This document shows, piece after piece, positions 526-64,000 of a DNA stretch of 64,000 nucleotides. A model generated the notes under the pieces. That model did not search any database and was not told the origin of the DNA. It saw only the letters and a list, made by a program, of their open reading frames with translations. Every line of letters begins with the position of its first letter. Within the stretch, counting starts at the first letter, position 1. The stretch comes from Vulcanimicrobiota bacterium (lineage in GTDB: Bacteria; Vulcanimicrobiota; SpSt-956; JAKJGF01): positions 3,948-67,947 of the forward strand of contig JBEHWO010000003.1 of NCBI GenBank assembly GCA_040217695.1, given 5' to 3'. The position numbers and the translations under genes were made by a program.

Positions 526-594
526 TAGACATTTAATTAATTTTCATTTATATATAAAATTACCTGTTCACTCATTACTCATAACGCTCTAAAG

Positions 595-1392
595 TTATCC
601 TCCGTTAATATTTAACCTTTTTAATCCCATAGAATATATAAAATAACATATGAAACCTGTTATTATAGCCCATAGACACTGCATTTTTATTACATAGAGG
701 AAATTCATCCAGTCAAATCTGATAAAGAGCTTTGCCGGTTCATATACCATAAAACCGAAAGGAAGGCATGACGCTATAGTTCTGAACATGGGAGGAAAAA
801 AATCCAGAGGTATAAGCATGCCTCCGAAAACGAAGATTATTTTATGATATATGAAAGATGCCATATTGGTGTCTTCCAGCCAGAAAGCGGAAAAGCCTAT
901 AGACATTCTTATGAAGAATTCCATAATAGTTGCAAATATTACGGTAATAAGTACAGGTAAAAATGTGAAACCATTAAATTTTATGGGACCTACCCAGAAA
1001 TAAACCATTACAGAGCCTGCGAGAAGATTTATTATGAGCTGCGGCAAAAATTCTCCTGTCCACAGGGATAGTTGAAACATAAGGTAATTGTAAGGCTTAT
1101 TTAACATGTAGGCAATGTTTCCGGATTTTACTTCCTGATCTATTTTTTCTTCAGGTCTTCCTCTTGAAGTAACCAGGGATTCCGTAAACATGAGATACCA
1201 GAGCATGTCGGCAAGAGTAAAGCCTTCTATACTGCCTCCGCCATGTTCATAGACCGCTCTCCATAACTGGGTGAATATATAGAGGATCATGATAAGAAAT
1301 AATGTTTTCAATACCCGTTCCAGGAGATATGTAAAACTGTTTGATATAGTTACCGTAAAGATTTTTGTATATTTAGAAAGACTCTTCCACAT
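595..1392 (-). CDS. ABC-2 family transporter permease (DUF990-like)
   Basis: Multiple TM segments, GNIAYMLNKP and GGMLIPLDFFP motifs, C-terminal NGG; follows ABC ATPase. Confidence 0.85.
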   Translation of the reverse strand: MWKSLSKYTKIFTVTISNSFTYLLERVLKTLFLIMILYIFTQLWRAVYEHGGGSIEGFTLADMLWYLMFTESLVTSRGRPEEKIDQEVKSGNIAYMLNKPYNYLMFQLSLWTGEFLPQLIINLLAGSVMVYFWVGPIKFNGFTFLPVLITVIFATIMEFFIRMSIGFSAFWLEDTNMASFIYHKIIFVFGGMLIPLDFFPPMFRTIASCLPFGFMVYEPAKLFIRFDWMNFLYVIKMQCLWAIITGFICYFIYSMGLKRLNINGG

Positions 1393-1424
1393 ATGTTAAA
1401 ACCTCTGTATTCAGCCGGTTTATT

Positions 1425-1474
1425 CGTATCACACGCATTACGCGTCACACATTACGCGTCACGCCCGTTACGCC
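1425..1474 (-). repeat. GTGACGC/GTAACGC-type heptamer array overlapping ATPase 3' end
   Basis: Minus strand GCGTAACGGGCGTGACGCGTAATGTGTGACGCGTAATGCGTGTGA. Confidence 0.75.
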
Positions 1475-2452
1475 CTCGTTATAAATAGCTCCTATTATTT
1501 CCTCCAGAGGCGGATCTGCCACATTTATATCCTCAATCTCAAAATTGCCTATCAGATAATCCATTAATTTTCTTATAGGGCATATTTCGCTGTCTGTTTC
1601 CAGTTTCAGCCCGTATTTTCCTCTTTTAATTATTTTACACCCTTCCATTGGAAGTTCTTCGGGAGGAATGTCACCGAAACGTACTCCCACAATTTTTCTT
1701 TTCATGGAAGTTCTTTTAAGTTCCGAAACCTGACCTTCATAAACAATAGTTCCTTCATTTATTATGATTACCCTTTTACAGAGTTTTTCTATATCTCCCA
1801 CATCATGAGAGGTAAGCAGTATTGTTACCTGTTCCCTTTCACTCATTTCCCTGATGAGTTCGCGAAAGGTTTTTTTTGATACTACATCAAGACCTATCGT
1901 AGGTTCATCCAGGAATATTACTTCAGGGTTGTGAAGCAGCGAGGCAACCATTTCACATCTCATTCTCTGTCCCAGTGACAGCTGTCTTACAGGGGTATTT
2001 ATAAATGGGGTTATTTCAAATAGCTCTACAAGTTCGGCCACTCTTTTTTTATATACATGAAAATCCATCTCATAGATTTTCCCGAATAATTCAAAGGTAT
2101 CTCCCGGAGGAAGGTGATACCATAACTGCGGTTTCTGACCGAATACCGCTCCTGTTTTAAAGGAAAGTTTCTGTCTGTCTTTCCACGGGATATGGCCCAG
2201 AACATTTACTTCTCCTCCGTCAGGATGGAGAATGCCTGTGAGGATTTTTATGGTAGTCGATTTTCCTGCACCGTTGGGGCCGATAAAGGCAAGTCTTTCT
2301 CCCTTTTCTATCTGAAAGCTTATGTTTTTTACAGCCTCCGAAATATTAAATTCGGGCTTTATCAAAGATTTTAAAGTGCCTTTCAGACCGGGTTTCTGTA
2401 TCTTTACTTTAAAGGTTTTAGAGAGGTTTTTTACGTTTACTACAGTACTCAT
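1445..2452 (-). CDS. ABC transporter ATP-binding protein
   Basis: Walker A GPNGAGKST, signature LSLGQ, Walker B IFLDEPT. Confidence 0.95.
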   Translation of the reverse strand: MSTVVNVKNLSKTFKVKIQKPGLKGTLKSLIKPEFNISEAVKNISFQIEKGERLAFIGPNGAGKSTTIKILTGILHPDGGEVNVLGHIPWKDRQKLSFKTGAVFGQKPQLWYHLPPGDTFELFGKIYEMDFHVYKKRVAELVELFEITPFINTPVRQLSLGQRMRCEMVASLLHNPEVIFLDEPTIGLDVVSKKTFRELIREMSEREQVTILLTSHDVGDIEKLCKRVIIINEGTIVYEGQVSELKRTSMKRKIVGVRFGDIPPEELPMEGCKIIKRGKYGLKLETDSEICPIRKLMDYLIGNFEIEDINVADPPLEEIIGAIYNEGVTGVTRNV

Positions 2453-2454
2453 AT

Positions 2455-2515
2455 CAGTTACCAGTTACCGGTTACCAGTTACCAGAGTTATTTGGTAACT
2501 GGTAACTGGTAACTG
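2455..2515. repeat. Heptamer hairpin (CAGTTAC)x4 / (GTAACTG)x3
   Basis: Inverted heptamer arrays filling the manC-ATPase spacer. Confidence 0.85.
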
Positions 2516-3577: not shown

Positions 3578-3659
3578 GTTTAAATCTCCTCGAGAAATAT
3601 GTTATGTTACTGTACTGAACAGGAGCATTAACAAACCTCCTGTCACGGGTCACGAATTA

Positions 3660-3884
3660 CTATTTATCCTGTTCAAGTTTTTCCATAAGATTGTTCAGAT
3701 TTTCTTTTGTATTCTTCAGAGTTTCTTTCAGTATTTTTACGAGTTCTTCTTCAGAACTTGCAATCTTTATGGCTTCCTCTATGTTGGATGTTATATCGGA
3801 AGCGGTCCTGGAAAAAATTTCTATGACATTTTTCAATTCATCACTGATTGTTCCATCAATAATTACAGGCTTCTTTTCTCCCAT
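3660..3884 (-). CDS. Small coiled-coil hypothetical protein
   Basis: 74-aa ORF co-oriented between HK-like gene and manC. Confidence 0.55.
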   Translation of the reverse strand: MGEKKPVIIDGTISDELKNVIEIFSRTASDITSNIEEAIKIASSEEELVKILKETLKNTKENLNNLMEKLEQDK

Positions 3885-3901
3885 AAAATAAGGTTCCTTT
3901 C

Positions 3902-5505: not shown

Positions 5506-5545
5506 AAGTCTTAATCTCACCTTCCTGATTTAAATTTTTTATTTA

Positions 5546-5570
5546 TTTCGACAAAAGTTTTTTAAAGCCT
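5546..5570 (-). promoter_or_regulatory. Putative SigH-like promoter
   Basis: AGGC-N17-GAAA with GTC before the -10 element, ~40 nt upstream of start. Confidence 0.4.
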
Positions 5571-5730
5571 TTTATTGTTTGACTGAAAAGTTTTAAAATG
5601 ATAATATATATGAAGCAGAATATCAGTACGTTTTATCAGAATGTACAGGTAATCCTCGCGTCACGGGTCACGAATTTTTTTATTTCTAATAAACCGGCTA
5701 TATATAAAGAAAGGTGAGGTGTAATTTATT

Positions 5731-7873: not shown

Positions 7874-7893
7874 ATCTTTTCTCCCGTCACGCG

Positions 7894-8826
7894 TCACGAC
7901 TCTATTATTTTCGGACCTTCTTCATTGATTTCTGAAATATAAACATGGCTCTGAATATCTATTTTATTAAAAACTTCTTTCATTGCTTTACCTGCTTTTT
8001 CCGCTGTTTCTCCGGAACTGCACAGGGCAAATATAGATGGCCCTGAGCCTGAGATACTGCATCCCAGAGCTCCTGACATCAATGCTGCCTTTTTTACATC
8101 ATAAAATCCCGGTATTAATTTTGCGCGAAAAGGTTCTATAATAACATCTTCAAGTGAGCGGCCTGTCAGATTGTAATCACCGGTAAATAAACCTGTAACA
8201 AGGCCTGCTACGTTTCCAAGTTGCTTTACAGCATCCTTCAGGGAGATTTCAGATTTTAAAATACTTCTTGCATATTCGGTGTTTATTTCAATCGAAGGAT
8301 GGATAACAGTACAGTATAATTCCGGGAGTGTCGGGATTTTTATAATATCCAGCGGGTTGTAGCTTCTTATGATTACAAATCCTCCCAGCAATGCAGGAGC
8401 TACATTGTCGGCATGCCCCGTACCGCAGGCCACCCTTTCACTTTCAATGGCAAAAGGAAGAAGTTCTTTTACTTCCAGAGGTTTGCCCAGTAATATATTT
8501 GCTCCGAAAAGCGCCCCCGCAGCACTGGCAGCACTGGAACCAAGGCCGCTGCTAAGAGGCATTTTTTTATGTATTTCTATTTCAAAACCTTTATCTGATT
8601 TTATATAATCCAGCAGAGCCATTACAGATACGGCTGCAGTATTTTTCTCCGGTTCCTCAGGCAACATGCCTTTATCGCCTGTAATTTTACTAATAACTAT
8701 TCCCCGTTTTTCTTTTAATCTTAACAGTATTTCATCTCCCGGATTATTCAGGGCAAAACCGAATATGTCAAAACCGCATGCCACATTTGCAACAGTGGCG
8801 GGAGCAAATATTTTTATATGCTTCAT
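7894..8826 (-). CDS. thrB: Homoserine kinase
   Basis: APATVANV, PLSSGLGSSAAS GHMP motif, HADNVAP, ISGSGPS. Confidence 0.96.
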   Translation of the reverse strand: MKHIKIFAPATVANVACGFDIFGFALNNPGDEILLRLKEKRGIVISKITGDKGMLPEEPEKNTAAVSVMALLDYIKSDKGFEIEIHKKMPLSSGLGSSAASAAGALFGANILLGKPLEVKELLPFAIESERVACGTGHADNVAPALLGGFVIIRSYNPLDIIKIPTLPELYCTVIHPSIEINTEYARSILKSEISLKDAVKQLGNVAGLVTGLFTGDYNLTGRSLEDVIIEPFRAKLIPGFYDVKKAALMSGALGCSISGSGPSIFALCSSGETAEKAGKAMKEVFNKIDIQSHVYISEINEEGPKIIES

Positions 8827-8848
8827 AAGTTTCGTCCTTACTCACGAC

Positions 8849-11293
8849 TCACCCTTCACTGATCCTTATAATATCGGCAAAAACTCCCGAAGCAGTTACT
8901 TCTGCTCCTGCTCCCGGCCCTTTTACCACAAGAGGTCTTTCCTTATATCTTTCTGTGGTAAAGGCGATTATGTTATCACTGCCTGAGAGGGTGAAAAAAG
9001 GATGGTTACTGTCTATTTCTTTAAGAGAAATATTGCCTCTGTTATGTTCCAGAGAAGAAATATATCTGAGAGATTTTCCTTTTGTTTCCGCTTCTCTTTT
9101 TATAGTTTCAAAGTAATCATCCGATTTCTCTAATTCTATCATAAATTTATCCACCGTTTCTGCCTTCTGACAGTTTTCCGGCAGAAAACTTTCAATCTTG
9201 ATATCTTCCAGTTCCATGGCCAGCCCTGTTTCTCTTGCCAGTATCAGGAGTTTTCTCGCACCATCAATGGAATTCAGATCATCTCTCGGATCTGGTTCTG
9301 TAAATCCTTTATCTTTTGCTTCCTTTACAACCGTGCTGAACCTTCTGGTTCCTGTAAAATTATTGAAAATATAACTTAAAGTGCCTGATAAAATAGCTTC
9401 TATCTTTAAAATTTTATCTCCGCTTGAAATTAAATCTTTTAACGTGCTTATAACAGGCAGCGCTGCTCCTACATTTGTTTCATATAAATATTTTACTCCA
9501 TATTTTGCGGCAGTATCTTTCAATTCTTTGTAAGTTTTATAATCCCTTGCATTGGCTTTTTTATTCGGTGTTACAATAGAAATACTTGATTTTAATAAGT
9601 CTTTGTAAAAGGCAATGATTTTTTCACTGGCAGTGCAGTCTACAAAAACACTGTTTGACAGATTCAAATCTTTTATTGTTTTTATGAATGTTTCCGTACA
9701 GGAAGTCTTTCCTTCTTCCTGAAGGATTGTTTTCCATTCTGACAGGCATATGCCGTCTTCGTCAAAAAACATTTTTTTCGTATTTGCAAGACCGGTCAGT
9801 TTTATATCAAGTGCATGTTTCCTGAGAAGGTATTCTTTCTGTCGTTCTATTTGCTTTATCAATGTTTTTCCTATCTGACCTGTACCTGCTAAAAATACAT
9901 GCAATGATTTTGTGTCTGAAAGGAAAAATGCTTCATGTATTACATTCAGCGCTTTTGCTTCATCATATTTATTTATGACAACAGATATATTTAATTCCGA
10001 TGAACCCTGTGCAATGGCAACTACATTGATACCGTTTTTCCCGAGAGCCCGGAATAATCTTCCTGATATGCCGGGAGTTCTTTTCATGTTTTCCCCTACT
10101 ATGCCAATAACGGAAAAATTATCTTCTACAATGACCTCGTCTATTTCATTTAATTTTATTTCCCTGGAAAATTCTTCTTCAATGATTTTTTTTGCGAACA
10201 TTGTTTTTTCCGGGTTTATGGCGAAACAGATTGAATGTTCCGAAGAGGCCTGCGTTATAAGGATAATATTGATTTTCCCCTTTGCCAGTGCGCCGAATAA
10301 TCTCATTGCAATACCGGCAACACCGATCATACCGCTTCCTTCTACTCTGAGAAGTGAAATGTTTTCAATAGAGGAAATACCTTTTACAAGGTATCTGCCT
10401 GTTACAGGAGTATCTGAGATCAGTGTACCGGCAAAATCCTGATTGAAGGTATTTTTTATTCTCACAGGTATCTTTTTCTCGAAAGCAGGTATCAGTGTGG
10501 GCGGATATATAACTTTTGCACCGAAATGAGACATTTCCATCGCTTCTTTATAGGTTATATGTTTTACGGGAAAGGCCTTTTTTACTTTTTTCGGGTCTGT
10601 AGTCATTATGCCGTCTACATCTGTCCATATTTCTATTTCAGTTGCTCCCAGGGCTGAACCGAATATGGACGCACTGTAATCAGAACCTCCCCTTCCAAGG
10701 GTGGTAATTTCGTTTTGTTCTGTAGAAGCTATAAAGCCTGTGATAATCTGCAGCTTTCTGTGAGACTGAAAGTAGTCTTTTATAAGTTCACATGTTAATT
10801 CCTGATTTACTTTTCCATTGCCAAAATTATTATCTGTTTTTATAACAGTTCGCCCGTCCAGGTATTCATTTTCAATATGATGTACATTAAGAGTTTCACT
10901 TATTATGGAAGCAGAAAGCCTCTCTCCGAAACTCATAATAAAATCCAGTGTTCTTGGCGAAAGTTCTTTTATTAAATATACTCCGTGAAGAACATTTCCA
11001 AGTTCCTGAAACATGTCATCTATAATTGAGAAGATGGGCCCTGTATGTCCTGTTAAAATATCTGCCGTATTTACGTGCCTTTCTTTCAGGCTATTCAGCA
11101 AATTTATATATTTTATATCACCTGTTTCAGCCATTCTGCCTGTTTCTATTAATTTATCCGTTACACCGGAAAAAGCCGAAAAAACTGCACATATTTCTTC
11201 TTCTTTTTTTAGATATTTTTCCATAATATGAAGTACGTGGAGAATTTTTTCAGGTTTTTCCACCGAGGTTCCGCCAAATTTTAATATTTTCAT
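8849..11293 (-). CDS. thrA: Bifunctional aspartokinase/homoserine dehydrogenase
   Basis: MKILKFGGTSV, TTLGRGGSDYSA, two ACT domains, GTGQIG, ETNVGAALP, TEPDPRDDL; start MKILKFGG after GAGGT RBS. Confidence 0.96.
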   Translation of the reverse strand: MKILKFGGTSVEKPEKILHVLHIMEKYLKKEEEICAVFSAFSGVTDKLIETGRMAETGDIKYINLLNSLKERHVNTADILTGHTGPIFSIIDDMFQELGNVLHGVYLIKELSPRTLDFIMSFGERLSASIISETLNVHHIENEYLDGRTVIKTDNNFGNGKVNQELTCELIKDYFQSHRKLQIITGFIASTEQNEITTLGRGGSDYSASIFGSALGATEIEIWTDVDGIMTTDPKKVKKAFPVKHITYKEAMEMSHFGAKVIYPPTLIPAFEKKIPVRIKNTFNQDFAGTLISDTPVTGRYLVKGISSIENISLLRVEGSGMIGVAGIAMRLFGALAKGKINIILITQASSEHSICFAINPEKTMFAKKIIEEEFSREIKLNEIDEVIVEDNFSVIGIVGENMKRTPGISGRLFRALGKNGINVVAIAQGSSELNISVVINKYDEAKALNVIHEAFFLSDTKSLHVFLAGTGQIGKTLIKQIERQKEYLLRKHALDIKLTGLANTKKMFFDEDGICLSEWKTILQEEGKTSCTETFIKTIKDLNLSNSVFVDCTASEKIIAFYKDLLKSSISIVTPNKKANARDYKTYKELKDTAAKYGVKYLYETNVGAALPVISTLKDLISSGDKILKIEAILSGTLSYIFNNFTGTRRFSTVVKEAKDKGFTEPDPRDDLNSIDGARKLLILARETGLAMELEDIKIESFLPENCQKAETVDKFMIELEKSDDYFETIKREAETKGKSLRYISSLEHNRGNISLKEIDSNHPFFTLSGSDNIIAFTTERYKERPLVVKGPGAGAEVTASGVFADIIRISEG

Positions 11294-11313
11294 GATTTTT
11301 CTTACCTCTTGAA

Positions 11314-11346
11314 TCGCGTGATGCGTGATGCGTGATGCGTGATATG
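11314..11346. repeat. (GCGTGAT)x4 heptamer array just upstream of thrA RBS
   Basis: cgcgtgatgcgtgatgcgtgatgcgtgat. Confidence 0.85.
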
Positions 11347-11411
11347 CGGCCGGTTGTGCAGTAAGGAAAATACTCATCCTGTGACACATCAACGGATCTA
11401 CAGGGGGATAC

Positions 11412-11453
11412 AAAAATCTCAGGAGGGAAATTCGATACGGTTCCCTCCTGAGA
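11412..11453 (-). terminator. Rho-independent terminator
   Basis: 13-bp stem TCTCAGGAGGGAA/TTCCCTCCTGAGA followed by TTTTT on minus strand, just after the 11459 stop. Confidence 0.7.
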
Positions 11454-11458
11454 AGAAA

Positions 11459-12894: not shown

Positions 12895-12932
12895 ATCACT
12901 GATCACTGATCACTGATCACCGATCACTGTTA
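12895..12932 (-). repeat. (GTGATCA)x5 heptamer array directly after dnaX stop
   Basis: Minus strand TAAcagTGAtcggTGAtcagTGAtcagTGAtcagTGA. Confidence 0.88.
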
Positions 12933-14759: not shown

Positions 14760-14801
14760 CTGAATTTCTTTTTCTGAATTTCCCTGAATTAGAATTTATA
14801 G

Positions 14802-14826
14802 ATTCGACTTAAAGATATAAAGTCCT
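14802..14826 (-). promoter_or_regulatory. Putative SigH-like promoter of dnaX operon
   Basis: AGGA-N17-GAAT (AAAGGACTTTATATCTTTAAGTCGAAT). Confidence 0.5.
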
Positions 14827-14889
14827 TTATATTTTAACTATGAAGGATTTTCTCTTTATATAAAAGAATAAATTCTTATGGATAATTAT

Positions 14890-15029
14890 CTTGATAATGT
14901 CACATTTAATAAAATAGCAATTGGCAATTAGCAGTTAGCTGTTAGCTTTCGAGTAATAATTAAAGCTAATCGCTAACAGCTGATAGCTAATAACTATTTT
15001 ATCAAAGCAGGTAATATGACAATGTCAGG
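14890..15029. mobile_element. MITE-like element with CTTGACAATGTCA-type ends and TTAGC/GCTAA heptamer hairpin, copy 1
   Basis: Imperfect 17-bp terminal inverted repeats; close copy at 45863-46009. Confidence 0.7.
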
Positions 15030-15030
15030 T

Positions 15031-15124
15031 TATAATTTAAAGGTATAGGAATTTTCATTTTTAATGGTGTAAAATAAGGCTTTAGATGAAAATTAAGTAA
15101 AGGCAGTTTATCTGAATAATTTAA
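15031..15124 (+). repeat. Dispersed AT-rich repeat (TAATTTAAAGGTATAGG...TCTGAATAATTTAA)
   Basis: Similar to 37959-38050; 3' part also at 36222-36264 and split around the 55464-55594 element. Confidence 0.65.
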
Positions 15125-15136
15125 GAGGTGATAGTA

Positions 15137-17643: not shown

Positions 17644-17826
17644 TATAGTGTATTTCATAACCTGTTAAAATTTACTTATGCTCTCGTGACGCGTAACGCG
17701 TGACGGGAAGAAAATCTAAAGTCAGCAGGTGTTCGTAATGCATGCTTCTTCACGCATCACGCATCACGCATTACGCATTACGCATCACGATGTTATTATT
17801 TATTGAGAGTTATGAAACTGACTATA
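17644..17826. mobile_element. MITE-like element with TATAGTGTATTTCATAAC ends and two opposed heptamer arrays
   Basis: 15/18 terminal inverted repeat; internal CGTGACGCGTAACGCGTGACG and (TCACGCA/TTACGCA)x6. Confidence 0.7.
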
Positions 17827-17892: not shown

Positions 17893-17993
17893 GACTGTAA
17901 TAAAATAATTCTGGCAAATTATGTTTACTGTCCTCCCGTCACGCGTCACGCGTCACGCGTCACGATTCTAAATATGATATGGTTATTTTTTTA
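17893..17993 (+). repeat. GACTGTAA..CTGGCAAATTATG-[CGTCACG]x4-..AAATATGATATGGTTATTT element
   Basis: Same family as 40417-40525 and 45749-45858. Confidence 0.75.
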
Positions 17994-23659: not shown

Positions 23660-25261
23660 ATGAGGTTTTCAAACAGGTATATTTCCAGTAAAAAAAATAA
23701 TATCGATGCTTCAATAATAGCACAACTGGCATTCGGTGAATTACAGAGTAAAGTCCCTGAAGTAACCGGTAAGCCGGTACTATGTCATTCCTGCGGTGCA
23801 GCAGTTACAGAACCATCTATTATTAAAGATACTCCCCCTGTAGGACTTCATTTTATATGTCAGTTCTGCAATAACATGAATAAAATAAATGAATTACAGT
23901 TTAACTCTATCAAAGCAATAGAAAAAGGTGTCATAGAATATCTTGATGAGATACAGAAAGATATGGCGGTAAAAGATAAAATAGTTGCATGTATAGACAT
24001 ATCGGGTTCCATGAATGGCGACAGTCTGGAATGTGTCAAAAAAAGTCTTATTGAAACACTGAAAGATATTTCCGTAAATGCCCCTGACAGCACTTTTGCC
24101 CTTATAACATTTACCGACTGGGTAAGCCTTTATAATGCTGATGGTCAGGAATGTATAAAAATCGCTGAAAGAGAGCTTTATGATGAAAATATGATTTGTC
24201 AGACCTTTCAAAACCTTCACTTTAACTTTGAACCGGTAAAAGAGAGTTACGAAAAATGGATAACTCTTGTTTCCGGTCTCAATGCAATATCCAGAACTGC
24301 CCTGGGACCGGCGGTGTTTTCCGCTTTCTGTCTTCTTCATGGAGGGGGCCGTATGATTTTACTTACAGATGGCCTTGCAAATGTGGGAATAGGTTCTCTT
24401 ATAAGCTATTCTCCCGGAGGAAGAAAAGGAGAATTTTACAGAGACTTCGCTTATAGATGCAGAGATGCCGGTGTAATGGTCGAAATTGTAGGTGTGGCAA
24501 CATCAGAACATTCCTCGATTGAACTGGGAACTATAGGTGATATGGCCCGTCTTACAGGAGGAGATATATATCTTGTAGACAGAAAGGAACTTTCAAAAAC
24601 TTTTAATACTCTTTCTCAGGCAGATTTTATAGGAAAAAATGTAAATGTAAGGATATTTGTTCCACCCAGTATGGCTCTCAGAGATGCAAGCGGTGATGTT
24701 CAGTTTCATAGAGAAGAAAAAGCTCTTAAAGCAAAAATCGGTTACGTAAACCCTGACAGGAAAATGTGTGTTGAACTGAATGTAACAGAAGATTTGAAAG
24801 AAAACGAGGATTTAACTGTTCAGACACAGGTAGAATATACAGGTATAGACGGAAAAAAGAGAATAAGAATATATAATGAGAAACTTCATGTGACAGAAAA
24901 AGAAAAAGATCTTGTAGAGAATTTCGAAAGTGACGTTTCGGATGAATTTTATATACAAAAAGCTGCCGAACTTGGCAGAACAGGCGAGGACGCAAAAGGT
25001 ATAAAGACTCTCCTGGAGTATACGGAAAAATTAAATGAATATCGTAATATGTCAACGAACCAGAAAAAAGCTCAATTGACCAGGAGTGAAGAACTCATAA
25101 ACAGGGAACTGGAAGATATAAATAAACTGAGACAGGAAAAAAGTAAAGATGCCAGATACAGTAAATATCAGGCAAGAGTTTCCTTTGGATCCACATCGGA
25201 ATTAAGGCAGGAATCCAGAAAAATGAGGCAGACGAAAATAGCTCTGGAACTGGAACCTTAA
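23660..25261 (+). CDS. Sec23/Sec24-like (cpRas1-like) Zn-finger + vWA domain protein
   Basis: TGKPVLCHSC...FICQFCNNMN Zn finger, IEY, CIDISGSM MIDAS, TALGPAV, LLTDGLANVGIGSL, FY, ARLTGG; AGGAG RBS. Confidence 0.8.
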   Translation: MRFSNRYISSKKNNIDASIIAQLAFGELQSKVPEVTGKPVLCHSCGAAVTEPSIIKDTPPVGLHFICQFCNNMNKINELQFNSIKAIEKGVIEYLDEIQKDMAVKDKIVACIDISGSMNGDSLECVKKSLIETLKDISVNAPDSTFALITFTDWVSLYNADGQECIKIAERELYDENMICQTFQNLHFNFEPVKESYEKWITLVSGLNAISRTALGPAVFSAFCLLHGGGRMILLTDGLANVGIGSLISYSPGGRKGEFYRDFAYRCRDAGVMVEIVGVATSEHSSIELGTIGDMARLTGGDIYLVDRKELSKTFNTLSQADFIGKNVNVRIFVPPSMALRDASGDVQFHREEKALKAKIGYVNPDRKMCVELNVTEDLKENEDLTVQTQVEYTGIDGKKRIRIYNEKLHVTEKEKDLVENFESDVSDEFYIQKAAELGRTGEDAKGIKTLLEYTEKLNEYRNMSTNQKKAQLTRSEELINRELEDINKLRQEKSKDARYSKYQARVSFGSTSELRQESRKMRQTKIALELEP

Positions 25262-25267
25262 TCATAA

Positions 25268-25732
25268 TCATAGCAGGGGCCGAATATTATTCTGTCCCTG
25301 CAGACTTATAACAGATGTATCCGGTTCAGGCAATTTTGATTTTTCTTCAAGTTCCGCTCCATATTCTTTTAAAAATTTAAGGAGTAAGAATTCCAGTCTT
25401 TCTCTGGCACTCTCTGGTGCTCTGCAGACCAGTAATCTGCATTCCATAGGTCGCTCTTGGTAAATTTTACATAATTTCTTTTCTTTATCAAACATAATGC
25501 AGTAGCCGTCTTTACCTTTCGGCAGATAATAAGCTTTATCATCTATTATTTTCACCAGCGGAGGATTTTGACAGCAAAACCCGCATTGTTTGCATGGATA
25601 AAAATATGACCATGAACTGGCAAAATTTATCATTTTATGAGTCCATGGAAGTTGAGGTATTTCTTCCCATTTAACAGGTTTCCAGGGAAGAACAGGTTTG
25701 GGAGGTAATTTTATCTGTTTATCGTGTTTCAT
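25268..25732 (-). CDS. YkgJ family cysteine-cluster (CxxCxxCC) protein
   Basis: CKQCGFCC...C...CKIYQERPMECR; overlaps kinase stop (ATGA). Confidence 0.85.
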   Translation of the reverse strand: MKHDKQIKLPPKPVLPWKPVKWEEIPQLPWTHKMINFASSWSYFYPCKQCGFCCQNPPLVKIIDDKAYYLPKGKDGYCIMFDKEKKLCKIYQERPMECRLLVCRAPESARERLEFLLLKFLKEYGAELEEKSKLPEPDTSVISLQGQNNIRPLL

Positions 25733-27740: not shown

Positions 27741-27763
27741 AGTGAATAGTGAATAGTGAATAG
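27741..27763 (+). repeat. (AGTGAAT)x3 heptamer array
   Basis: agtgaatagtgaatagtgaatag. Confidence 0.8.
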
Positions 27764-39305: not shown

Positions 39306-39410
39306 TTATTGACCTGAGCATAAGCATGTAATAAAGGTCTTGCTCCCGTCACACGTTACGCGTTACGCTTCACGAGAGCAGTTATGTATTATTTATACTC
39401 ATCTCAGTAA
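39306..39410 (-). mobile_element. MITE-like element (23357 family), reverse orientation
   Basis: TTATTGACCTGAGCATAAGCATGTAATAAA...core...TTTATACTCATCTCAGTAA. Confidence 0.72.
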
Positions 39411-40196: not shown

Positions 40197-40376
40197 CAGT
40201 GCTGAATACGACACCTGATAATCTGTGAACCTGTCTCCTCCCGTCACGCGTCACGATTGTAAATATGATATGGTTATTTTTTACAAACACCGAGTAATGC
40301 CAACGATAAATACGACACCTGATAATCTTTGATTTTGTCTCCTCCCGTCACGCGTTACGCGTTACGCTTCACGATA
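40197..40376 (+). repeat. Tandem dimer of heptamer-core composite repeat
   Basis: Inverted counterpart of 35997-36222 including the GAGTAATGCCA junction. Confidence 0.8.
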
Positions 40377-40416: not shown

Positions 40417-40525
40417 GGGACTGTAAGAAAATAACTCTGGCAAATTATGGTTTTTTTCCTCCCGTCACGCGTTACGCGTTACGCGTCACGATTGTAAATA
40501 TGATAAGGTTATTTTTTACAACCCC
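40417..40525 (+). mobile_element. MITE-like element GGGACTGTAAGAAAATAAC...GTTATTTTTTACAACCCC with heptamer core
   Basis: Imperfect terminal inverted repeats; core CGTCACGCGTTACGCGTTACGCGTCACG. Confidence 0.75.
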
Positions 40526-43350: not shown

Positions 43351-44274
43351 ATGAAAGTAATTATATGTGATCCTATCGACAAAGAATCTTTAGGTAAATT
43401 ACAGGCCCATAAGGGATTGGAAGTAGATGAGAAGACCGGCCTTGCACCTGATGAACTGTTGAAAATCACAGGTGATTATCATGCTATGGTTGTAAGAAGT
43501 GCTACAAAGGTTACTGCAGATGTAATTAAAGCAGCGAAAAATCTCAAACTGGTAGTAAGAGGCGGTGTGGGTGTTGATAATATAGATGTAAAATGTGCGG
43601 AAGCAGCAGGCATCAAAGTGGCAAATACCCCCAATGCCAGTTCCATATCAGTAGCGGAAATGGCAATAGCCATGATGTTTGGACTGGCGAAAAAATTGAC
43701 CTATCTTGATTCTTCAATGAAAAATGGCAAATGGGTTAAAAAGGGTTATAAAGCAATGGAACTCTGCGGGAAAACTGTCGGTATTATCGGTATGGGAAGA
43801 ATAGGTCAGGAAGTGGCAAGAAGGGCTCTCGGTCTCGGCATGCATGTACATTTTCAGGATGTCAGATCTATTCTTACTTTTGATCCTACAGGTATGGGGA
43901 CAGAACAGCATCCAATGAAGGTTATACTTGAAGAATCAGATTTTATAACACTTCATACTCCTTTTATAAAAGAACATGGTCCAATACTCAAAGCAGAACA
44001 TTTTGAGAAAATGAAAGACGGAGTTTTTATTATAAATTGTGCCAGAGGCGGAGTCGTTGATGAAAAAGCCCTCCTGGATGCACTGAAATCAGGAAAAGTA
44101 GCAGGAGCAGGTATTGATGTGTTCGAAACAGAACCTGCCTTCAGGGAAGAATTTAAAGAACTTGAAAATGTAATTCTCACCCCCCATGTAGCTGCTTCCA
44201 CAAAAGAAGGTCAGGCAAGAGTCGGCAGTGAAGTTGCAAAGATAATTATAGATTTTTATGAAGCAACCAAATAA
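43351..44274 (+). CDS. serA: D-3-phosphoglycerate dehydrogenase (short form)
   Basis: VRSATKV, GVGVDNID, GMGRIG, NCARGG, DVFETEP, LTPHVAAST; DUF1015 synteny. Confidence 0.88.
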   Translation: MKVIICDPIDKESLGKLQAHKGLEVDEKTGLAPDELLKITGDYHAMVVRSATKVTADVIKAAKNLKLVVRGGVGVDNIDVKCAEAAGIKVANTPNASSISVAEMAIAMMFGLAKKLTYLDSSMKNGKWVKKGYKAMELCGKTVGIIGMGRIGQEVARRALGLGMHVHFQDVRSILTFDPTGMGTEQHPMKVILEESDFITLHTPFIKEHGPILKAEHFEKMKDGVFIINCARGGVVDEKALLDALKSGKVAGAGIDVFETEPAFREEFKELENVILTPHVAASTKEGQARVGSEVAKIIIDFYEATK

Positions 44275-44323
44275 GTGAGTAGTGAATAGTGAGTAGTGAG
44301 TAGAAGTAATCACTACTCACTTT
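44272..44323. repeat. GTGAGTA/GTGAATA heptamer hairpin directly after serA stop
   Basis: taagtgagtagtgaatagtgagtagtgagtag...tcactactcactt. Confidence 0.8.
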
Positions 44324-44355
44324 CATTATAAATAGTTGCTTTCGAGCATTATACC

Positions 44356-44379
44356 CGCGTCACGCGTCACGCGTCACGA
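44356..44379 (+). repeat. (GCGTCAC)x3 array before RBS
   Basis: cgcgtcacgcgtcacgcgtcacga then AAGGAGG. Confidence 0.8.
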
Positions 44380-45657: not shown

Positions 45658-45721
45658 TAGTGAAAAGTGAAAAGTGAAAAAATTAGATTTTACTTACTTT
45701 TCACTTTTCACCACTCACTAT
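45658..45721. repeat. (GTGAAAA)x3 / TTTTCAC heptamer hairpin after DUF1015 stop, possible terminator
   Basis: tagtgaaaagtgaaaagtgaaaa...cttttcacttttcaccactcacta. Confidence 0.78.
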
Positions 45722-45862: not shown

Positions 45863-46009
45863 CTTGACAATGTCACATTTAATAAAATAGCAATTAGCAA
45901 ATAGCTGTTAGTTTTCAGTTAATAATTAAAGCTAATCGCTAACAGCTAATAGCTAAAAACTAAAAACTAATAATTATTTTATCAAAGCAGGTAATATGAC
46001 AATGTCAAG
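45863..46009. mobile_element. MITE-like element with CTTGACAATGTCA ends, copy 2
   Basis: 15/17 terminal inverted repeat; close copy of 14890-15029 with different heptamer count. Confidence 0.72.
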
Positions 46010-49161: not shown

Positions 49162-50475
49162 ATGTTTATGAAAAATTTTTTATATTTTATATCTTTTACC
49201 GGTATTTTGTTTTTCTTTACCATTGTTTATACTTATGCAGGCACAGGAGAGGGCGCCGCAGAAATTCTTAAGGAAATAAACCTGTTAAAAGGTAAACTTT
49301 CCTCTATGGATATATATACGGAAACATCGGAAAAAGGTTACCTGCAGATAGAAAAAAAATATAAAGACGGAAAAAATATTATAGTAAAAACCCTGTTTGA
49401 TAAAAATGGAAATGTGTTGTGCTGCGATGAATATATAACTTTTCAGGATAAATTAATATGGGAACATAAAGAAACAGGTTCTGTTCATTTCATTATAACT
49501 GCAGGGAAAAATGGAATGGTAAAGAGGGAAGATGTTGCTTTCGCTCCTGTTTCGACCTGTACACCCCCGCCTTATGTTCCCCGGACTGTAACTCCGACAC
49601 AGCATGTGAAACCTTCTGTGACACCGGCTCTCTCTATTTCTCCTGCTCCATCTCCAACGCCATGTGTCAAGCTTAAATTGAAGGAAAAAATAATATTTGT
49701 ATCCGATTTTGACGGTATTATGAATATATATACCATTAACCCCGATGGCTCAAATCTTTATAAAATAACAAAAGAAAGATATGAGAAAGCTTTCCCGTCG
49801 ATTTCTCCCGATGGATTGAAAATAATATATTCAGGCAATAAGGATGGGACTTGGAATATTTATACAGTAAATACTGACGGTACCGGTGAAAAAAGACTGA
49901 CGAACAGTGGTAGCAACGATATTATGCCATGTTTTATAGATAAGAATAATATTATATTTCAATCATTCAGAGAAGGAAAGCCTGCTATATACAGAATGGC
50001 TCTTGATACGAAAGAAGTTTCTCTTCTTACGAATGATTTTATTCTATCTATTCACCCTGTTCTCTACCCCGATAGAAAGAAAATTCTCTTTGCAGGAGAA
50101 AAGAATGGTAAAACCGAGTTATATAGTATGGACATAGATGGAAAAAATCTTAAAGAATTAACTCATAGCAGGTTTGAAAAATCTTTTCCTTCTATATCTT
50201 CTGACGGTAAAAAGATTGCTTTCAGCGGGAACAGTGAAGGCAGATGGAGTATATATATCATTGACGGAGGGAAGCAGAGAAAAATTAACACAGGTTTTAA
50301 AGATAGCATCTATCCGTCCTGGACCTGTGACGGTAAACATATAGTTTTTCAGGCTCTCGAAAAAGGAAATACAGGTTTATTCAAAATAAATCTGTCAGGA
50401 GAGAAGTCTGTAAAATTAACGGATAATAAGAGTAATAATATTCAGGCAAGATGTCAATTTATAATGGTGAAATGA
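49162..50475 (+). CDS. Exported TolB-like PD40 beta-propeller protein
   Basis: Signal peptide, Pro/Thr linker, repeated FPSISPDG.KI...IY...DG...LT. Confidence 0.85.
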   Translation: MFMKNFLYFISFTGILFFFTIVYTYAGTGEGAAEILKEINLLKGKLSSMDIYTETSEKGYLQIEKKYKDGKNIIVKTLFDKNGNVLCCDEYITFQDKLIWEHKETGSVHFIITAGKNGMVKREDVAFAPVSTCTPPPYVPRTVTPTQHVKPSVTPALSISPAPSPTPCVKLKLKEKIIFVSDFDGIMNIYTINPDGSNLYKITKERYEKAFPSISPDGLKIIYSGNKDGTWNIYTVNTDGTGEKRLTNSGSNDIMPCFIDKNNIIFQSFREGKPAIYRMALDTKEVSLLTNDFILSIHPVLYPDRKKILFAGEKNGKTELYSMDIDGKNLKELTHSRFEKSFPSISSDGKKIAFSGNSEGRWSIYIIDGGKQRKINTGFKDSIYPSWTCDGKHIVFQALEKGNTGLFKINLSGEKSVKLTDNKSNNIQARCQFIMVK

Positions 50476-50652
50476 CGCGTAATTGTTTACACGTCACTTC
50501 ACGGCTGTTTACCACTCAAGATATTCTGATTTGCCTGTCAGTTTATCGAGTCCATCTTTTATAATAATGTTTTTATTCTTTTCTCTCTCTGAAATAAGCT
50601 CTGTTTATGATATTATATACACGAAGAAGGTAATAAAATATTGCAGTAATTT

Positions 50653-60025: not shown

Positions 60026-60041
60026 AGTGATACCTCCTTTA

Positions 60042-60719: not shown

Positions 60720-60752
60720 AATAACATTCCTCTCGAGCCTTATTAATTGCTC

Positions 60753-61220: not shown

Positions 61221-61263
61221 AGTAATTCACAAATAATGTATTTTATTCTGCTGTTCTGCTACA

Positions 61264-61292
61264 ATTGTAACATAAAAAGGTGATCCAGTCAA
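61264..61292 (-). promoter_or_regulatory. Sigma70-type promoter of pilin operon
   Basis: TTGACT-N17-TACAAT with extended TG. Confidence 0.6.
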
Positions 61293-61365
61293 TGTTTTTG
61301 GTAAACTAATGGTGTAAGATAGTTAACAAATTTTATTTATATTTAACTTTAAAAATATGTAATGT

Positions 61366-63090
61366 TCAGTCTCTTCCCATGCCTCTGCCAGGGCCGCCGG
61401 GACCTCCGCCTGGAGGGCCTCCGGTGCCCGGTGTTTGATTTGCTCCTTTAATTTCCGGAAGTTTGACTTCATCATTTTCTTTCAGTCCTGTTACTATCTC
61501 TATCATGACATTATTTTTAAGGCCTGTAGTAACTTCAGAATCAGTAAAAGTATTTTTACCCGTAACGAGGGTTACATATTTTTTCCCCTTTTTTTCCCAT
61601 ACTGCTTCAAGAGGAACTTGAAGGACAGAGTCTTTTTTTGCTACATAGATATCCGCATCGACAGACATGCCGGGGTAGAGTATTTCGTAACGCTTCTTTC
61701 CCTGTGGTAAATCCTGGTTTTTAATCCTGTCCAGTAATATTTTAATTCTTATTTTAAAAGTCGGTATCTGTTCAACCTGTGAAGCCTGAGGTGTTATATG
61801 TGTTATAATCCCTGGGATTTTCAGATCCTGATAGGCTGCAGCCATTATGGTCACTGGAAGATGGAGTTTGATTTTTCCTATGTCTGATTCGTCAATAGTT
61901 GTTTCTGCATAAATCTCACCGAGATCTGCAATAGTCATTAACGTTGTTCCTGCGGCACTGGACATAGTCTGAGATGCAACTACATCTCCTACTTCAACTG
62001 CTCTGCTGATGATCAGAGCATTAACCGGCGAGAGTATTTTTGTTTTGGACAGTTGATCTTTGGACTGCTCTTTGGAAGCTTTTGATTTATCCAGGAGGGC
62101 TCCTGTAGAGGCAAGATCGTTTTCCTTCATGCTTACCTGAAGCCCCTCTGCTCTGGCCTGTTCCAGATTTATCCTTGCTGTATTCAGATCTGTTTCTGCT
62201 ATATGGAGGGCTCTCTCTTTAACGGCAATATCCTGTTTCCCTTTTGTTATCTGATATTTTAGATTTTTCTCAGCCTGTTCAACCTGTGCCTGACTTATTT
62301 CTATATCTTCAGGTCTGTTTCCTTCAACAGCCATATCATAGGCTACCTGTGCAGCTTCATATTGAGATTTTGCAACAATGTATGTTTTCTCGGCATCATC
62401 AACAGTTTTCTGTGCAACAAACTCATTTTTATAAAGCTCTTTCTGTCGTTCATAATCTTTTCCGGCATTTTCCATAGTAACTTCTGCCTGTTCTACCTGT
62501 TCAAGTTTTGCCGCTATTTCCTGTTTTCTCGAACCTGCCCGGGTTTTCTCAAGCTGTTTTTTTGCCACTTCAAGGGAAGAAGTAGCCTGTTCTATTGCTG
62601 ATTTTGTGATTTCTTTTTGTTCCGTCAATTCTTCCATGGCATTTTTATAAACGAGTTCTGCTCTGGTAAGCTGTTCTTTCTTTCCTGCTATCGTAAGCTC
62701 ATTGTTTTTTTTCTGAAATTCTACGGATGTTTCTGCCTGTTTAAGCTTCGAAAGATTGTTTCTGTAATCTGCATCTGTCTGAAGGTCTGATTGCTTTAAC
62801 TGAGTATCATCAATAATTGCCAGTAAATCCCCCTGTTCAACAGTTTCTCCTTCTTCGTGAGGTAGTTTTATGACCTTCCCTCCTATTTCTGATTTTATAT
62901 CTATCTGTACTATTGCTTTAACCACTCCTGTAGCAGTTATAATAACTTCCATATTATCTTTCATAACCTTAACAGAGCTGTAATCTTTCTTTTTTTCTGC
63001 TTTTTTCTGTTTTGTTTTATAGATATAAAAACCGGCTGAGCATATTATAACCAGTATAATAAATATAATAAATATTTTAGATTTTTTCAT
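61366..63090 (-). CDS. Efflux periplasmic adaptor (HlyD/MacA-like) with long coiled coil
   Basis: N-terminal TM, ATGVV, GETVEQGDLL, I.SP, DESDIGKI, PGMS, TGL. Confidence 0.9.
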   Translation of the reverse strand: MKKSKIFIIFIILVIICSAGFYIYKTKQKKAEKKKDYSSVKVMKDNMEVIITATGVVKAIVQIDIKSEIGGKVIKLPHEEGETVEQGDLLAIIDDTQLKQSDLQTDADYRNNLSKLKQAETSVEFQKKNNELTIAGKKEQLTRAELVYKNAMEELTEQKEITKSAIEQATSSLEVAKKQLEKTRAGSRKQEIAAKLEQVEQAEVTMENAGKDYERQKELYKNEFVAQKTVDDAEKTYIVAKSQYEAAQVAYDMAVEGNRPEDIEISQAQVEQAEKNLKYQITKGKQDIAVKERALHIAETDLNTARINLEQARAEGLQVSMKENDLASTGALLDKSKASKEQSKDQLSKTKILSPVNALIISRAVEVGDVVASQTMSSAAGTTLMTIADLGEIYAETTIDESDIGKIKLHLPVTIMAAAYQDLKIPGIITHITPQASQVEQIPTFKIRIKILLDRIKNQDLPQGKKRYEILYPGMSVDADIYVAKKDSVLQVPLEAVWEKKGKKYVTLVTGKNTFTDSEVTTGLKNNVMIEIVTGLKENDEVKLPEIKGANQTPGTGGPPGGGPGGPGRGMGRD

Positions 63091-63291
63091 AAAAAACTTT
63101 CTCCTGTAGCTTTTTCAAAGGAATATGCTATATTTTTTACCGTCCAGAATATCATTTGATAGCTGGAATTTATGAATAATTATGACTGAAAAAGGCAAAA
63201 AAAGCAAGTGGGAATTTTGAAAAAATGAAAATCAGTAAAAACAGACAACCCTGTGTATTCGCCCGGTACACGGCGAAAATACGCATCACGC

Positions 63292-64000
63292 TTATAATAA
63301 ACTTTCTCCTATAGCTTTTTTAAATGTGAAAAGTGCTATCTGATAATTATATCTGGCAACAATTAAGTCAGTCATGGATCTGTTGAATGTTACCTGTGCG
63401 TCCAGGAGTTCCTGAAATGGAGAAACTCCTGCTTTATATCTTCCTTCTGCTACCTGAAGATTTTTATTTGCTTCTTCTACCTGCTGTGTTGTCAATTCTA
63501 TCTTTGCAAAAGCTGTTTCAAGATTATAATAGGATGTTTCCACTTCAAGACTTATAGATTTTTCCGTATCCAGTTTGCCTGCTTCCAGACTGGTTTTATT
63601 TGCTTTCGCCGCATCTATTTTTGACGAACTGCTGAACCCATCAAAGAGGGGAAGGGTAAAATTTGCCTGCACTGTATAATAATTATTAGGACGGGCAGGG
63701 TCTCTGGCTGCATCCAGGTTTAATCCCACGTCTACAGTAAGCTGTGGCATTACACTGATAGTAAGAAGGTCAATCTGTACTGCCTGTGCCTTAATCTGTG
63801 CCAGCATTTCTTTTAGCTCGGGTCTTTTCTCCATGGCATTACTTATTGCCTCCTGCAGTTCAGGTTTACAGGTCAATTCAAAACTTTCTTCCACTACCTC
63901 TGCTTCTATATCTCTTTTTAAGCCTATTAAACTTTTCAGATTGGCCATTTTGATCCTGAGATTATTCCGGGCATCCAGAAGATTAACCTTTGCCTCTGTG
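63292..64000 (-). CDS. TolC family outer membrane protein, 5' end outside window
   Basis: AMEKRPEL, LPLFDG, EVETSYY, RYKAG...LLDAQ. Confidence 0.88.
   Translation of the reverse strand, partial: TEAKVNLLDARNNLRIKMANLKSLIGLKRDIEAEVVEESFELTCKPELQEAISNAMEKRPELKEMLAQIKAQAVQIDLLTISVMPQLTVDVGLNLDAARDPARPNNYYTVQANFTLPLFDGFSSSSKIDAAKANKTSLEAGKLDTEKSISLEVETSYYNLETAFAKIELTTQQVEEANKNLQVAEGRYKAGVSPFQELLDAQVTFNRSMTDLIVARYNYQIALFTFKKAIGESLL

Follow-up and report, generated by a model that had tools for sequence, protein, structure and literature searches.

Tandem heptanucleotide repeats have been known from cyanobacteria since 1990 and from Xanthomonas and the Beggiatoaceae since 2015, and neither a function nor an origin has been accepted for them. 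The short tandemly repeated repetitive (STRR) heptamers of heterocystous cyanobacteria were reportedly described by Mazel et al. in 1990. Two further systems bear comparison. The repetitive extragenic palindromic (REP) sequences and bacterial interspersed mosaic elements (BIMEs) of enterobacteria and pseudomonads are abundant extragenic stem-loops found past stop codons or between cistrons, mosaic in structure and alternating in orientation. They have been proposed to stabilize mRNA and to act as insulators, and REPs are single imperfect palindromes with a GTAG head that are mobilized by REP-associated tyrosine transposases (RAYTs). The ribbon-helix-helix (RHH) protein omega of pSM19035 binds 7-bp heptads of the form WATCACW at a few promoter and centromere sites of the plasmid. 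Here we analyze arrays of a heptamer with the core GTRA (units GTRANNN, where R is G or A and N is any base; TYAC on the complementary strand) in a 64,000-nucleotide stretch of the genome of a Vulcanimicrobiota bacterium (contig JBEHWO010000003.1), referred to as the window, and throughout that genome and its relatives.

The closest published description is that of Rehm et al. (2015, PMC4692102). In the parts of that article drawn on here, G-rich heptamer simple sequence repeats (SSRs) are reported from Xanthomonas campestris and axonopodis (GGGAATC) and from Nostoc PCC 7120 (GGGGA(C/T)T), and three heptanucleotides are mentioned in Calothrix. By the rule given there, a repeat lies nearest to the open reading frame (ORF) on its 5' side whatever the orientation of that ORF; repeats are antisense within 50 bp before an ORF and sense within 50 bp past a stop codon, overlaps with the stop included, and two nearby sites are in convergent orientation in 70 and 75 cases. 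Position is kept between close relatives, length and sequence vary, and the same parts of the article assign no function. MacGregor (2015, PMC4679880) describes, in the parts used here, TAACTGA direct repeats in marine Beggiatoaceae, cyanobacteria and some Bacteroidetes. The forward unit carries stops in all three frames, so that overlap with ORF ends is at most 18 nt, and it points in the sense direction toward a downstream start codon. Our literature search found no paper that combined Eremiobacterota with tandem repeats.

The genome under study (G000) comprises 7.79 Mb in 903 contigs with 36.8% G+C, a completeness of 96% and a contamination of 6.5%; the window is G000:C3:3948-67947. Genes were placed by ORF and codon-usage calls (6293 genes, 86.6% coding), in which stop positions are exact and starts, being longest-ORF starts, are uncertain. 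Arrays were scored as exact with at least three copies of one unit and as degenerate when they fitted (GTRANNN)≥3 with any NNN. Period 7 accounts for 30 of the 90 Tandem Repeats Finder rows in the window and, genome-wide, for 951 exact arrays, compared with 26, 33, 12 and 19 at periods 5, 6, 8 and 9. Twenty-two of the 951 could not be oriented; the other 929 divide into 725 that are fully intergenic, 185 that overlap or lie at ORF ends and 19 deep inside a called ORF. Degenerate arrays number 3212 and hold 13,691 units, and at least one array is present in 1809 of 5390 intergenic regions (34%).

Arrays with different units had been predicted to share G-TGA or G-TAA, and the genome bears this out. 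Nearly all of the 43 canonical units are GTRANNN, led by GTGACGC (297), GTGAAAA (206), GTAACGC (120) and GTGATGC (84), and variants are often mixed as mosaics within a single array. A core-free search based on 7-nt self-similarity alone returned 2791 regions (129 kb), of which 2601 (93%) had a GTRA consensus, 148 had another consensus and 42 could not be placed in register. Deviation from the consensus within arrays was 0.14, 0.16 and 0.15 at G1, T2 and A4, compared with 0.25-0.32 at R3 and the three N positions. Among 2159 interior units with two good neighbors on either side, 174 had a variant core; GTGG, which destroys the stop codon, was the most frequent variant (63) and GTAG occurred once, and a stop was kept in only 23 of the 174. 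The conserved feature is thus shown to be the short 4-base core GT(G/A)A and not the whole unit. No GGG run able to form a G-quadruplex was found in the units (GTGACGC, GTGAAAA, GTAACGC and others).

The arrays are strongly polar with respect to genes. Of the 2880 degenerate arrays that could be classified, 2151 turn the 5' end of their GTRA strand toward the nearest gene boundary and 729 the 3' end (p = 2e-161). We compared their placement with 200 permutations in which each of the 2880 was re-placed uniformly within its own intergenic region on a random strand. Sense arrays within 10 nt of a stop numbered 705, against 226 ± 13 in the null (maximum 270), and antisense arrays 48, against 228 ± 13. 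At 0-40 nt before a start, TYAC was on the mRNA strand in 510 arrays (null, 379 ± 17) and GTRA in 110 (null, 375 ± 17). This permutation check, suggested in the original prediction, shows a strong departure from random placement, and neither a 50:50 orientation at gene boundaries nor random distances to stops were found. The overall orientation of arrays in tandem regions is near 50:50 (244 in the same direction as the genes, 296 opposite), and the signal is a coupling of position and orientation, not a global strand bias. Between tandem genes, the median distance is 12 nt from sense arrays to the upstream stop and 25 nt from antisense arrays to the downstream start. Among 117 cases between convergent genes, the closer stop is the co-oriented one in 100; among 169 between divergent genes, the closer start belongs to the oppositely oriented gene in 124. 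Arrays in the stop-free orientation before starts number 1117, compared with 1034 in sense after stops. Polarity toward the nearest gene fades from 0.86-0.89 below 25 nt to 0.55 at 100-200 nt. We rejected the G-richness of a strand as the sole determinant of direction: GTGACCA has no GC skew and a polarity of 22:1, and the unit GTAACTG is reversed.

These placements follow a rule of convergent pairing. Where opposite arrays are adjacent within 150 nt, GTRA precedes TYAC in 671 cases and follows it in 31, with a median gap of 21 nt. This arm order is as strict in tandem spacers (436:5) as in convergent (83:0) and divergent ones (113:3), and it holds with distance from any gene (56:12 at 60-120 nt, 30:3 at 120 nt or more). 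For pairs in divergent regions, the median distances to the two starts are 44 and 65 nt, and the gap is 27 nt. The data show a single rule, by which the GTRA strand runs from the flanking gene toward the middle of the spacer on both sides, and "sense after stops" and "antisense before starts" are two faces of it. Under this rule the mRNA reads GURA directly past the stop and UYAC just upstream of the ribosome-binding site. The pairs are not copies of one amplified element, since 444 of the 467 loops of at least 12 nt are distinct; among the 344 loops of at least 20 nt, one single-linkage cluster of 162 was formed, which probably chains loops with degenerate heptamers inside.

In the window the same layout can be followed gene by gene:
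1432..1475, minus strand: mosaic array of GTGACGC, GTAATGT and GTAATGC; one unit contributes the TGA stop of the ABC ATPase gene (1445-1447).
2455..2515, no strand: manC hairpin, (CAGTTAC)x4.4 and (TGGTAAC)x3.3, in the spacer from the manC stop to the start of the ABC ATPase gene, with the TYAC arm first (reversed order).
3640..3653, minus strand: two units, GTGACCC GTGACAG, 6 nt past the TAG stop of a 74-aa ORF (3660-3884); a weak instance.
7884..7897, minus strand: two units, GTGACGC GTGACGG; unit 1 supplies the thrB stop (7894-7896) and the thrC Shine-Dalgarno sequence and start follow.
8839..8859, minus strand: three units, GTGAAGG GTGAGTC GTGAGTA; unit 2 supplies the thrA stop (8849-8851) and the thrB ribosome-binding site follows.
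11316..11343, plus strand: (GCGTGAT)x4, which is ATCACGC on the thrA mRNA strand, ending about 12 nt before the thrA Shine-Dalgarno sequence.
12895..12929, minus strand: (GTGATCA)x5, from 2 nt past the dnaX stop to the ybaB ribosome-binding site.
17685..17789, no strand: convergent pair in a divergent intergenic region, CGTGACG/CGTAACG at 17685-17705 (GTRA on the plus strand) and TCACGCA at 17750-17789 (GTRA on the minus strand).
17893..17993, minus strand: dispersed element of about 100 nt, resembling a miniature inverted-repeat transposable element (MITE), with (CGTCACG)x4 at 17937-17964.
27741..27763, plus strand: (AGTGAAT)x3.3, which is TATTCAC on the mRNA strand of a Ser/Thr kinase gene (25729-27699, minus strand), 41 nt before its start.
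39354-39368 and 40346-40367: additional period-7 rows near cheB.
40463..40490, minus strand: (CGTCACG)x4 on the plus strand, which is GTGACGC on the cheB mRNA strand, 45 nt past the cheB stop (40535).
44274..44378, no strand: full intercistronic layout from the serA-like gene to DUF1015, with a TAA stop, GTGAGTA/GTGAATA x4 directly after it (44275-44303), a short TYAC arm and (GCGTCAC)x3 (44356-44378), the last lying 7 nt before the DUF1015 AGGAGG.
45659..45711, no strand: convergent pair past the DUF1015 stop, (GTGAAAA)x3, a 10-nt loop and TACTTAC/TTTTCAC x3.
50472..50500, plus strand: TGA stop of the TolB-like gene in a GTGAAAT-GACGC-GTAAT context, then a short TYAC arm; a weak instance.
63250..63291, minus strand: one or two units of GTGATGC past the tolC stop, then a degenerate REP-like hairpin (CCGGGCGAA...); a weak instance.

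The prediction had named nine stops at which such arrays begin, and all nine have in-phase GTRA units on the sense strand, with starts that range from 11 nt ahead of the end of the stop codon to 6 nt past it. Their strength is uneven: at least three units are present at the ABC ATPase, thrA, dnaX, serA-like and DUF1015 genes, and one or two at ORF 3660, thrB, the TolB-like gene and tolC. Four genes, those for the ABC ATPase and the TolB-like protein together with thrB and thrA, end on a TGA that a unit provides. The three pre-start sites named there (11316-11343, 27741-27763 and 44356-44378) all read TYAC on the mRNA strand, 7-12 nt from the Shine-Dalgarno sequence at thrA and DUF1015 and about 29 nt from it at the kinase. 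Window sites and genome counts therefore agree that arrays abut or overlap stops in sense and stand as TYAC before ribosome-binding sites. Gene names given earlier for the window also agree with the Pfam matches, which are ABC ATPase, ManC, ThrC/ThrB/ThrA, RecR, YbaB, DnaX, 2-hydroxyacid dehydrogenase ("serA"), DUF1015, a PD40/TolB-like protein, HlyD and an outer-membrane efflux protein.

The manC hairpin had been singled out as an exception with the opposite arm order, and it is one, because its unit GTAACTG belongs to a reverse-polarity, TAACTGA-like class. We found 11 TAACTGA arrays of at least two units and 25 GTAACTG arrays in the genome. All six classifiable TAACTGA arrays are sense and just upstream of starts, and 21 of the 22 classifiable GTAACTG arrays are reversed, 14 in sense just upstream of starts and 7 antisense past stops. 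TAACTGA and GTAACTG form a separate class with a polarity opposite to that of the GTRA majority. A further period-7 unit outside the GTRA family (AGCTAAT / TAGCAAT / TTAGCTG) occurs as inverted arms at window positions 14915-14996 and 45885-45972; its 12 arrays genome-wide, found with a relaxed pattern, have no clear gene polarity.

Several dispersed elements carry or adjoin arrays. The MITE-like element at 17893-17993 has 137 near-full-length copies with an internal (CGTCACG)n, and these are almost non-polar (69:49), so that they dilute the placement rule and do not create it. Only a subset of arrays combines the multiple copies, conserved interior and terminal inverted repeats that define a MITE. 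Other elements were noted in the window. One of about 93 nt (15032-15124) occurs 85 times in G000 at 60% length or more, and many copies are present in G001-G003, three further genomes of the genus; another (14884-15038) has 12 copies of at least 60% length and arms made of AGCTAAT-type heptamers in inverted order; a third (392-567) has 9 long copies and about 60 partial matches. A REP-like palindrome, GTAG-GGGCGAAC-loop-GTTCGCCC-GGTACC, gave 74 strict-pattern matches over both strands, 42 of them with the 5' GTAG head, and has a degenerate copy at about 63258-63290. A second hairpin, GGGCGTTTAA(A/T)TAAACGCCC, gave 48 matches. Both hairpins often occupy loops between heptamer arms and are separate from the heptamer arrays. 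No RAYT gene linked to the REP-like hairpins was found. The three full Y1_Tnp genes of G000, one of which is followed by a TnpB-like ORF, have neither arrays nor REP-like hairpins in their 260-nt flanks, and they are ordinary IS200/IS605-type genes. In G003 the only Y1_Tnp match is sub-threshold (22.5 bits), though that genome has 1267 matches to the array pattern. On these grounds, array-free flanks and the lone 22.5-bit match, we rejected a RAYT/REP origin of the arrays.

We then compared relatives, namely G001-G003, which with G000 make up the four genomes of the genus, and G004 from the sister genus of the same family. Exact (GTGACGC)x3 was matched 114-399 times in each of the four genomes of the genus; 37 other genomes had no match, and the control count was 0. 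Matches to the pattern (GTRANNN)x4+GTRA numbered 1988, 1267 (G003), 1075 and 784 within the genus and 238 in the family's one other genus, compared with 0-8 in each of 296 other sampled genomes of the phylum Eremiobacterota/Vulcanimicrobiota. The exact repeat also occurs in six viral contigs, four of them of 63-72% G+C, which are uninformative for this lineage. Arm order and polarity recur in G003 (400 kb sampled; pairs 35:4, polarity 111:45) and in G004 (156 kb sampled; pairs 7:0, polarity 16:3). For an anchor-based synteny comparison we took 166 G003 arrays and set aside 6 near sampled ends and 36 with no syntenic anchor pair, leaving 124. The syntenic G000 spacer had an array in the same orientation in 99 cases, only in the opposite orientation in 9 and none in 16; 10 arrays were identical. 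Place and orientation are thus shown to persist between species, and copy number and unit variants change fast. At individual junctions, conservation and wholesale replacement of the spacer were both seen. The thrA leader array (11316..11343) has the same place and orientation in G001 and G002 with different unit variants. The dnaX array (12895..12929) is identical in G003, and extra arrays are inserted in G002. At the manC junction, G003 has a hairpin of normal arm order (GTGAGTA...TACTCAC) and G001 has none. A side observation came from comparing window segments 5521-5730, 8827-8848, 11300-11458 and 14760-15127 with loci L085-L094: spacers next to arrays are insertion hot spots for different MITE-like elements in each species, and the flanking ribosome-binding sites and gene ends are conserved.

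The original prediction had noted that three units close all frames, since 7 mod 3 = 1, and this stands: 344 genes (about 6%) end inside a sense array, with the stop in unit 1, 2 or 3 in 151, 119 and 74 of them, so that coding sequences run into arrays in each of the three frames, and about 190 proteins have their last few residues encoded by one. It had gone on to offer selection for a three-frame stop cassette as a possible cause, and that part was not supported.

Possible RNA structure was assessed on 150 of the 538 pairs. These fold well, with a median z of -4.0 against mononucleotide shuffles, z below -2 in 77% and a median of -29 kcal/mol for 73 nt. The hairpins proposed in the original prediction are in this respect supported, although the partner arms are not mutually complementary beyond random and no U-tract follows them: at least five T in the 8 nt past the 3' arm were found in 14% of cases, compared with an 11% baseline. 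We accordingly rejected intrinsic (Rho-independent) terminators, for which the hairpin is present (z = -4) and the U-tract is not; for lack of this tract the arrays are not canonical intrinsic terminators. Three other candidates were tried. Co-adapted hairpin arms, or an origin by inverted duplication, were discarded since partner arms matched no better than random, also in an in-register test. We also rejected a clamp of Shine-Dalgarno and anti-Shine-Dalgarno sequences at pre-start arrays: 133 of 597 cases had TCCT or CCTC within the 10 nt upstream, and so did 200 of 1034 in the control class; the TCCTC seen near pre-start arrays belongs to MITE copies. For a promoter at a fixed distance upstream of pre-start arrays there was no positional peak of TATAAT with at most one mismatch, a search that is uninformative at 37% G+C.

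From these data we consider it very probable that the arrays are members of a class of polar intergenic heptamer SSRs to which STRR and the Xanthomonas GGGAATC repeats also belong, with the stop codons as a by-product; the present lineage, uncultivated Eremiobacterota (Vulcanimicrobiota), would have a family-wide and very dense version of it. A function as RNA stem-loops, argued by analogy, is a tentative addition that we regard as possible. On transcripts, arrays would form the GURA trailer and the UYAC leader of cistrons; where both arms are present, a generically complementary, stable intercistronic stem-loop could form in the RNA and might act like a REP/BIME-type element, as a barrier that stabilizes or processes 3' ends and as an insulator between cistrons. 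The stop-rich 5' arm lets the element lie flush with a gene end or slightly inside it; TGA or TAA recurs every 7 bases on the GTRA strand, and an array can therefore stand flush with the 3' end of a gene or a few codons within it. The conserved core points to a putative sequence-specific trans factor or generating activity. The two parts together, polar heptamer SSR identity and a stem-loop role, give the best explanation overall, and one we hold to be probable with some reserve. Three results weigh against a co-adapted hairpin. In about half of the regions that bear arrays, a single orientation is present; the real partner arm paired better than random arms in only 132 of 299 cases; and the two arms agree in their predominant NNN in 49 of 538 pairs, compared with 63.8 expected, a deficit consistent with avoidance of long perfect palindromes. 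MITE-borne arrays of the GTGACGC-type unit are tolerated both ways (69:49), which weakens any argument from selection on orientation.

The principal competitor would do away with function. On this account the arrays are a mutational by-product whose orientation is fixed at birth by an activity of the lineage that lays or extends heptamers on a DNA 3' end, for example through repeat-adding or slip-synthesis repair of intergenic breaks or through a GTRA-specific nickase with a strand-displacing polymerase; two healed ends would meet head to head, and purifying selection would set only their closeness to genes. An arm order independent of gene context and distance, arms independent of each other in unit type, mostly unique loops (444/467), entry into gene ends in all three frames (151/119/74) and MITE-borne arrays in either orientation all fit such an origin, as do whole spacers replaced between species and a core conserved across 43 unit types, which a mechanistic requirement would predict. 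No candidate enzyme was found, however, and the Y1 transposases are not linked to arrays; both array ends are sharp with no old-to-young gradient, so that no polar growth is visible, and many different units are hard to fit with one fixed template. We judge this account, which is argued by analogy only, to be unlikely though worth keeping in view. A stronger form of it is less likely again: the lineage would actively write repeats, extending DNA 3' ends with GTRA-phased heptamers at intergenic breaks or nicks, in the manner of a chromosome-internal bacterial analogue of telomere healing with head-to-head fusion, or else the core would be read at 7-nt phase by a dedicated protein. It draws on a convergent arm order that does not depend on gene context, on arms independent of each other, on unique junctions and on the conservation of the 4-base core.

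Selection for stop cassettes that catch read-through or frameshifted ribosomes, for its part, would explain a TGA or TAA in every GTRA unit at a period that visits all frames, the 705 sense arrays within 10 nt of a stop where 226 are expected, and the 344 genes that end in an array. It sits poorly with an arm order that loses no strictness where no stop is adjacent, whether between divergent genes (113:3) or at least 120 nt away from genes (30:3), with the similar numbers of stop-free arrays before starts (1117) and sense arrays past stops (1034), and with a G1 that lies outside the stop codon and is conserved like T2 and A4. Variant cores, moreover, keep a stop in only 23 of 174 cases and favor GTGG (63) over GTAG (1), and the Xanthomonas GGGAATC arrays, stop-free in every frame, follow the same rule in the parts of PMC4692102 drawn on here. 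We therefore think this cause very unlikely, and the three-frame stop property looks like a tolerated and used by-product of polarity, not its cause. We give equally little credence to DNA operator arrays, on which a cooperative heptad-binding protein like omega would spread mirror-wise from the middle of the spacer. Four conserved base pairs alternating with three variable ones in strict 7-bp phase, mirror-image arms whatever the direction of transcription, and divergent-region pairs at a median of 44 and 65 nt from the starts, many of them upstream of both likely promoters, would suit such a protein. One arm only in about half of the regions and overlap with coding ends would not, and Omega_Repress (PF07764), the only RHH family searched, matched in G000 (34.1 bits) and, below the cut-off, in G004 (26 bits) and had no match in G001-G003. 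An omega-like heptad binder is thus not supported, PF07764 not being conserved in the family. Least probable of all, in our estimate, is that small MITE- or REP-like mobile elements account for the arm order as terminal inverted repeats spread by transposition. The 137 near-full copies with an internal (CGTCACG)n, other dispersed elements with array arms such as 14884-15038, insertions adjoining arrays in the junction comparisons and the GTAG-headed hairpin in some loops speak for it; most loops are nevertheless unique (444/467), partner arms lack the complementarity of terminal inverted repeats and pair no better than by chance, the one MITE family quantified is almost non-polar (69:49), and the Y1_Tnp genes have no flanking arrays, with only a 22.5-bit match in G003 beside 1267 pattern matches.

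As members of the polar heptamer SSR class, the arrays offer a dense natural data set, about 3200 arrays and 43 units on one core in five related genomes, in which properties confounded in other systems can be told apart. The placement rule comes down to convergent pairing and depends on neither stops nor hairpin co-adaptation nor U-tract termination; together with the short conserved core, this narrows the search to a sequence-specific generating activity or binding factor. Should active repeat writing prove true, it would supply a common principle behind the identical placement rule in Xanthomonas and Nostoc. In practical terms, arrays provide about 6% of genes with their stop codon and code for a few C-terminal residues, short-read assemblies break at them (903 contigs here), and they can mislead gene-start calls because their antisense strand is open in all frames.

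Some neighboring features of the window are recorded for completeness. A 533-aa protein (23660-25261, plus strand) matches a eukaryote-type Sec23/Sec24 trunk (E = 3.8e-11) and beta-sandwich (E = 5.2e-9), which is unusual for a bacterium. Within the gene for the Ser/Thr kinase-HEAT protein (25729-27699, minus strand), a 21-nt (7-codon) tandem repeat of 7.6 copies at 26567-26721 is in frame and unrelated to the heptamers. A 192-aa protein (27906-28484, plus strand) has a PycTM (Pycsar effector) domain (E = 1.6e-7) and is possibly a remnant or part of an anti-phage system. A 346-aa ORF (38072-39112, plus strand) with no Pfam match consists mostly of low-complexity repeats, Lys/Glu-rich and acidic (GAA/GAG/GAC), whose periods are 9, 18 and 27 nt. 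Sampled words of the genome were shared by 5 public RNA sequencing runs (6-14%) and 15 DNA runs (best shares, 0.92 and 0.53); the best two DNA runs, which may contain the source sample, are labeled anaerobic digester metagenome, and we conclude nothing from the runs on transcription or habitat.

Set beside the known systems, the arrays resemble omega heptads in their 7-bp phase, a TCAC-containing core and direct and inverted heptads in arrays, and differ from them in occupying thousands of chromosomal spacers with no omega homologue conserved across the family. Unlike REP/BIME, they have arms built of tandem heptamers with no specific complementarity between partners, and they showed no association with RAYTs. 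With the TAACTGA repeats, as covered in the parts of PMC4679880 used here, they share an all-frame stop heptamer and a mostly intergenic location, and G000 holds true TAACTGA arrays; the GTRA majority has the opposite polarity, however, and only the TAACTGA and GTAACTG minority agrees with MacGregor. The resemblance to cyanobacterial STRR that the original prediction had drawn is upheld: both are tandem heptamer arrays with several unit families per genome, intergenic and lineage-specific, although the units differ; for STRR itself, the literature consulted here held no analysis of arm order or of core conservation.

The nearest likeness is to the SSRs of Rehm et al. (PMC4692102), as far as the parts of that article drawn on here extend: period 7, a near-wholly intergenic and lineage-restricted distribution, the placement rule, convergent pairs, and a kept locus with variable content. 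The placement rule itself is therefore already published there. Our arrays depart from those SSRs in having GTRA units with no G-run, so that the G-quadruplex on which that paper focuses is inapplicable, and G-runs appear as a feature of the published units and not necessarily of the class. They depart from them also in a 4-base core with many 3-base variants (43 units), often mosaic in one array, in a much higher density (3212 arrays, 34% of intergenic regions), in the stop codon within each unit and in belonging to another phylum. What is new in this lineage is the 4-base core beneath the 43 units, the density of the arrays, the co-resident class of opposite polarity, and an arm order shown to be independent of stops, of partner complementarity and of gene distance.

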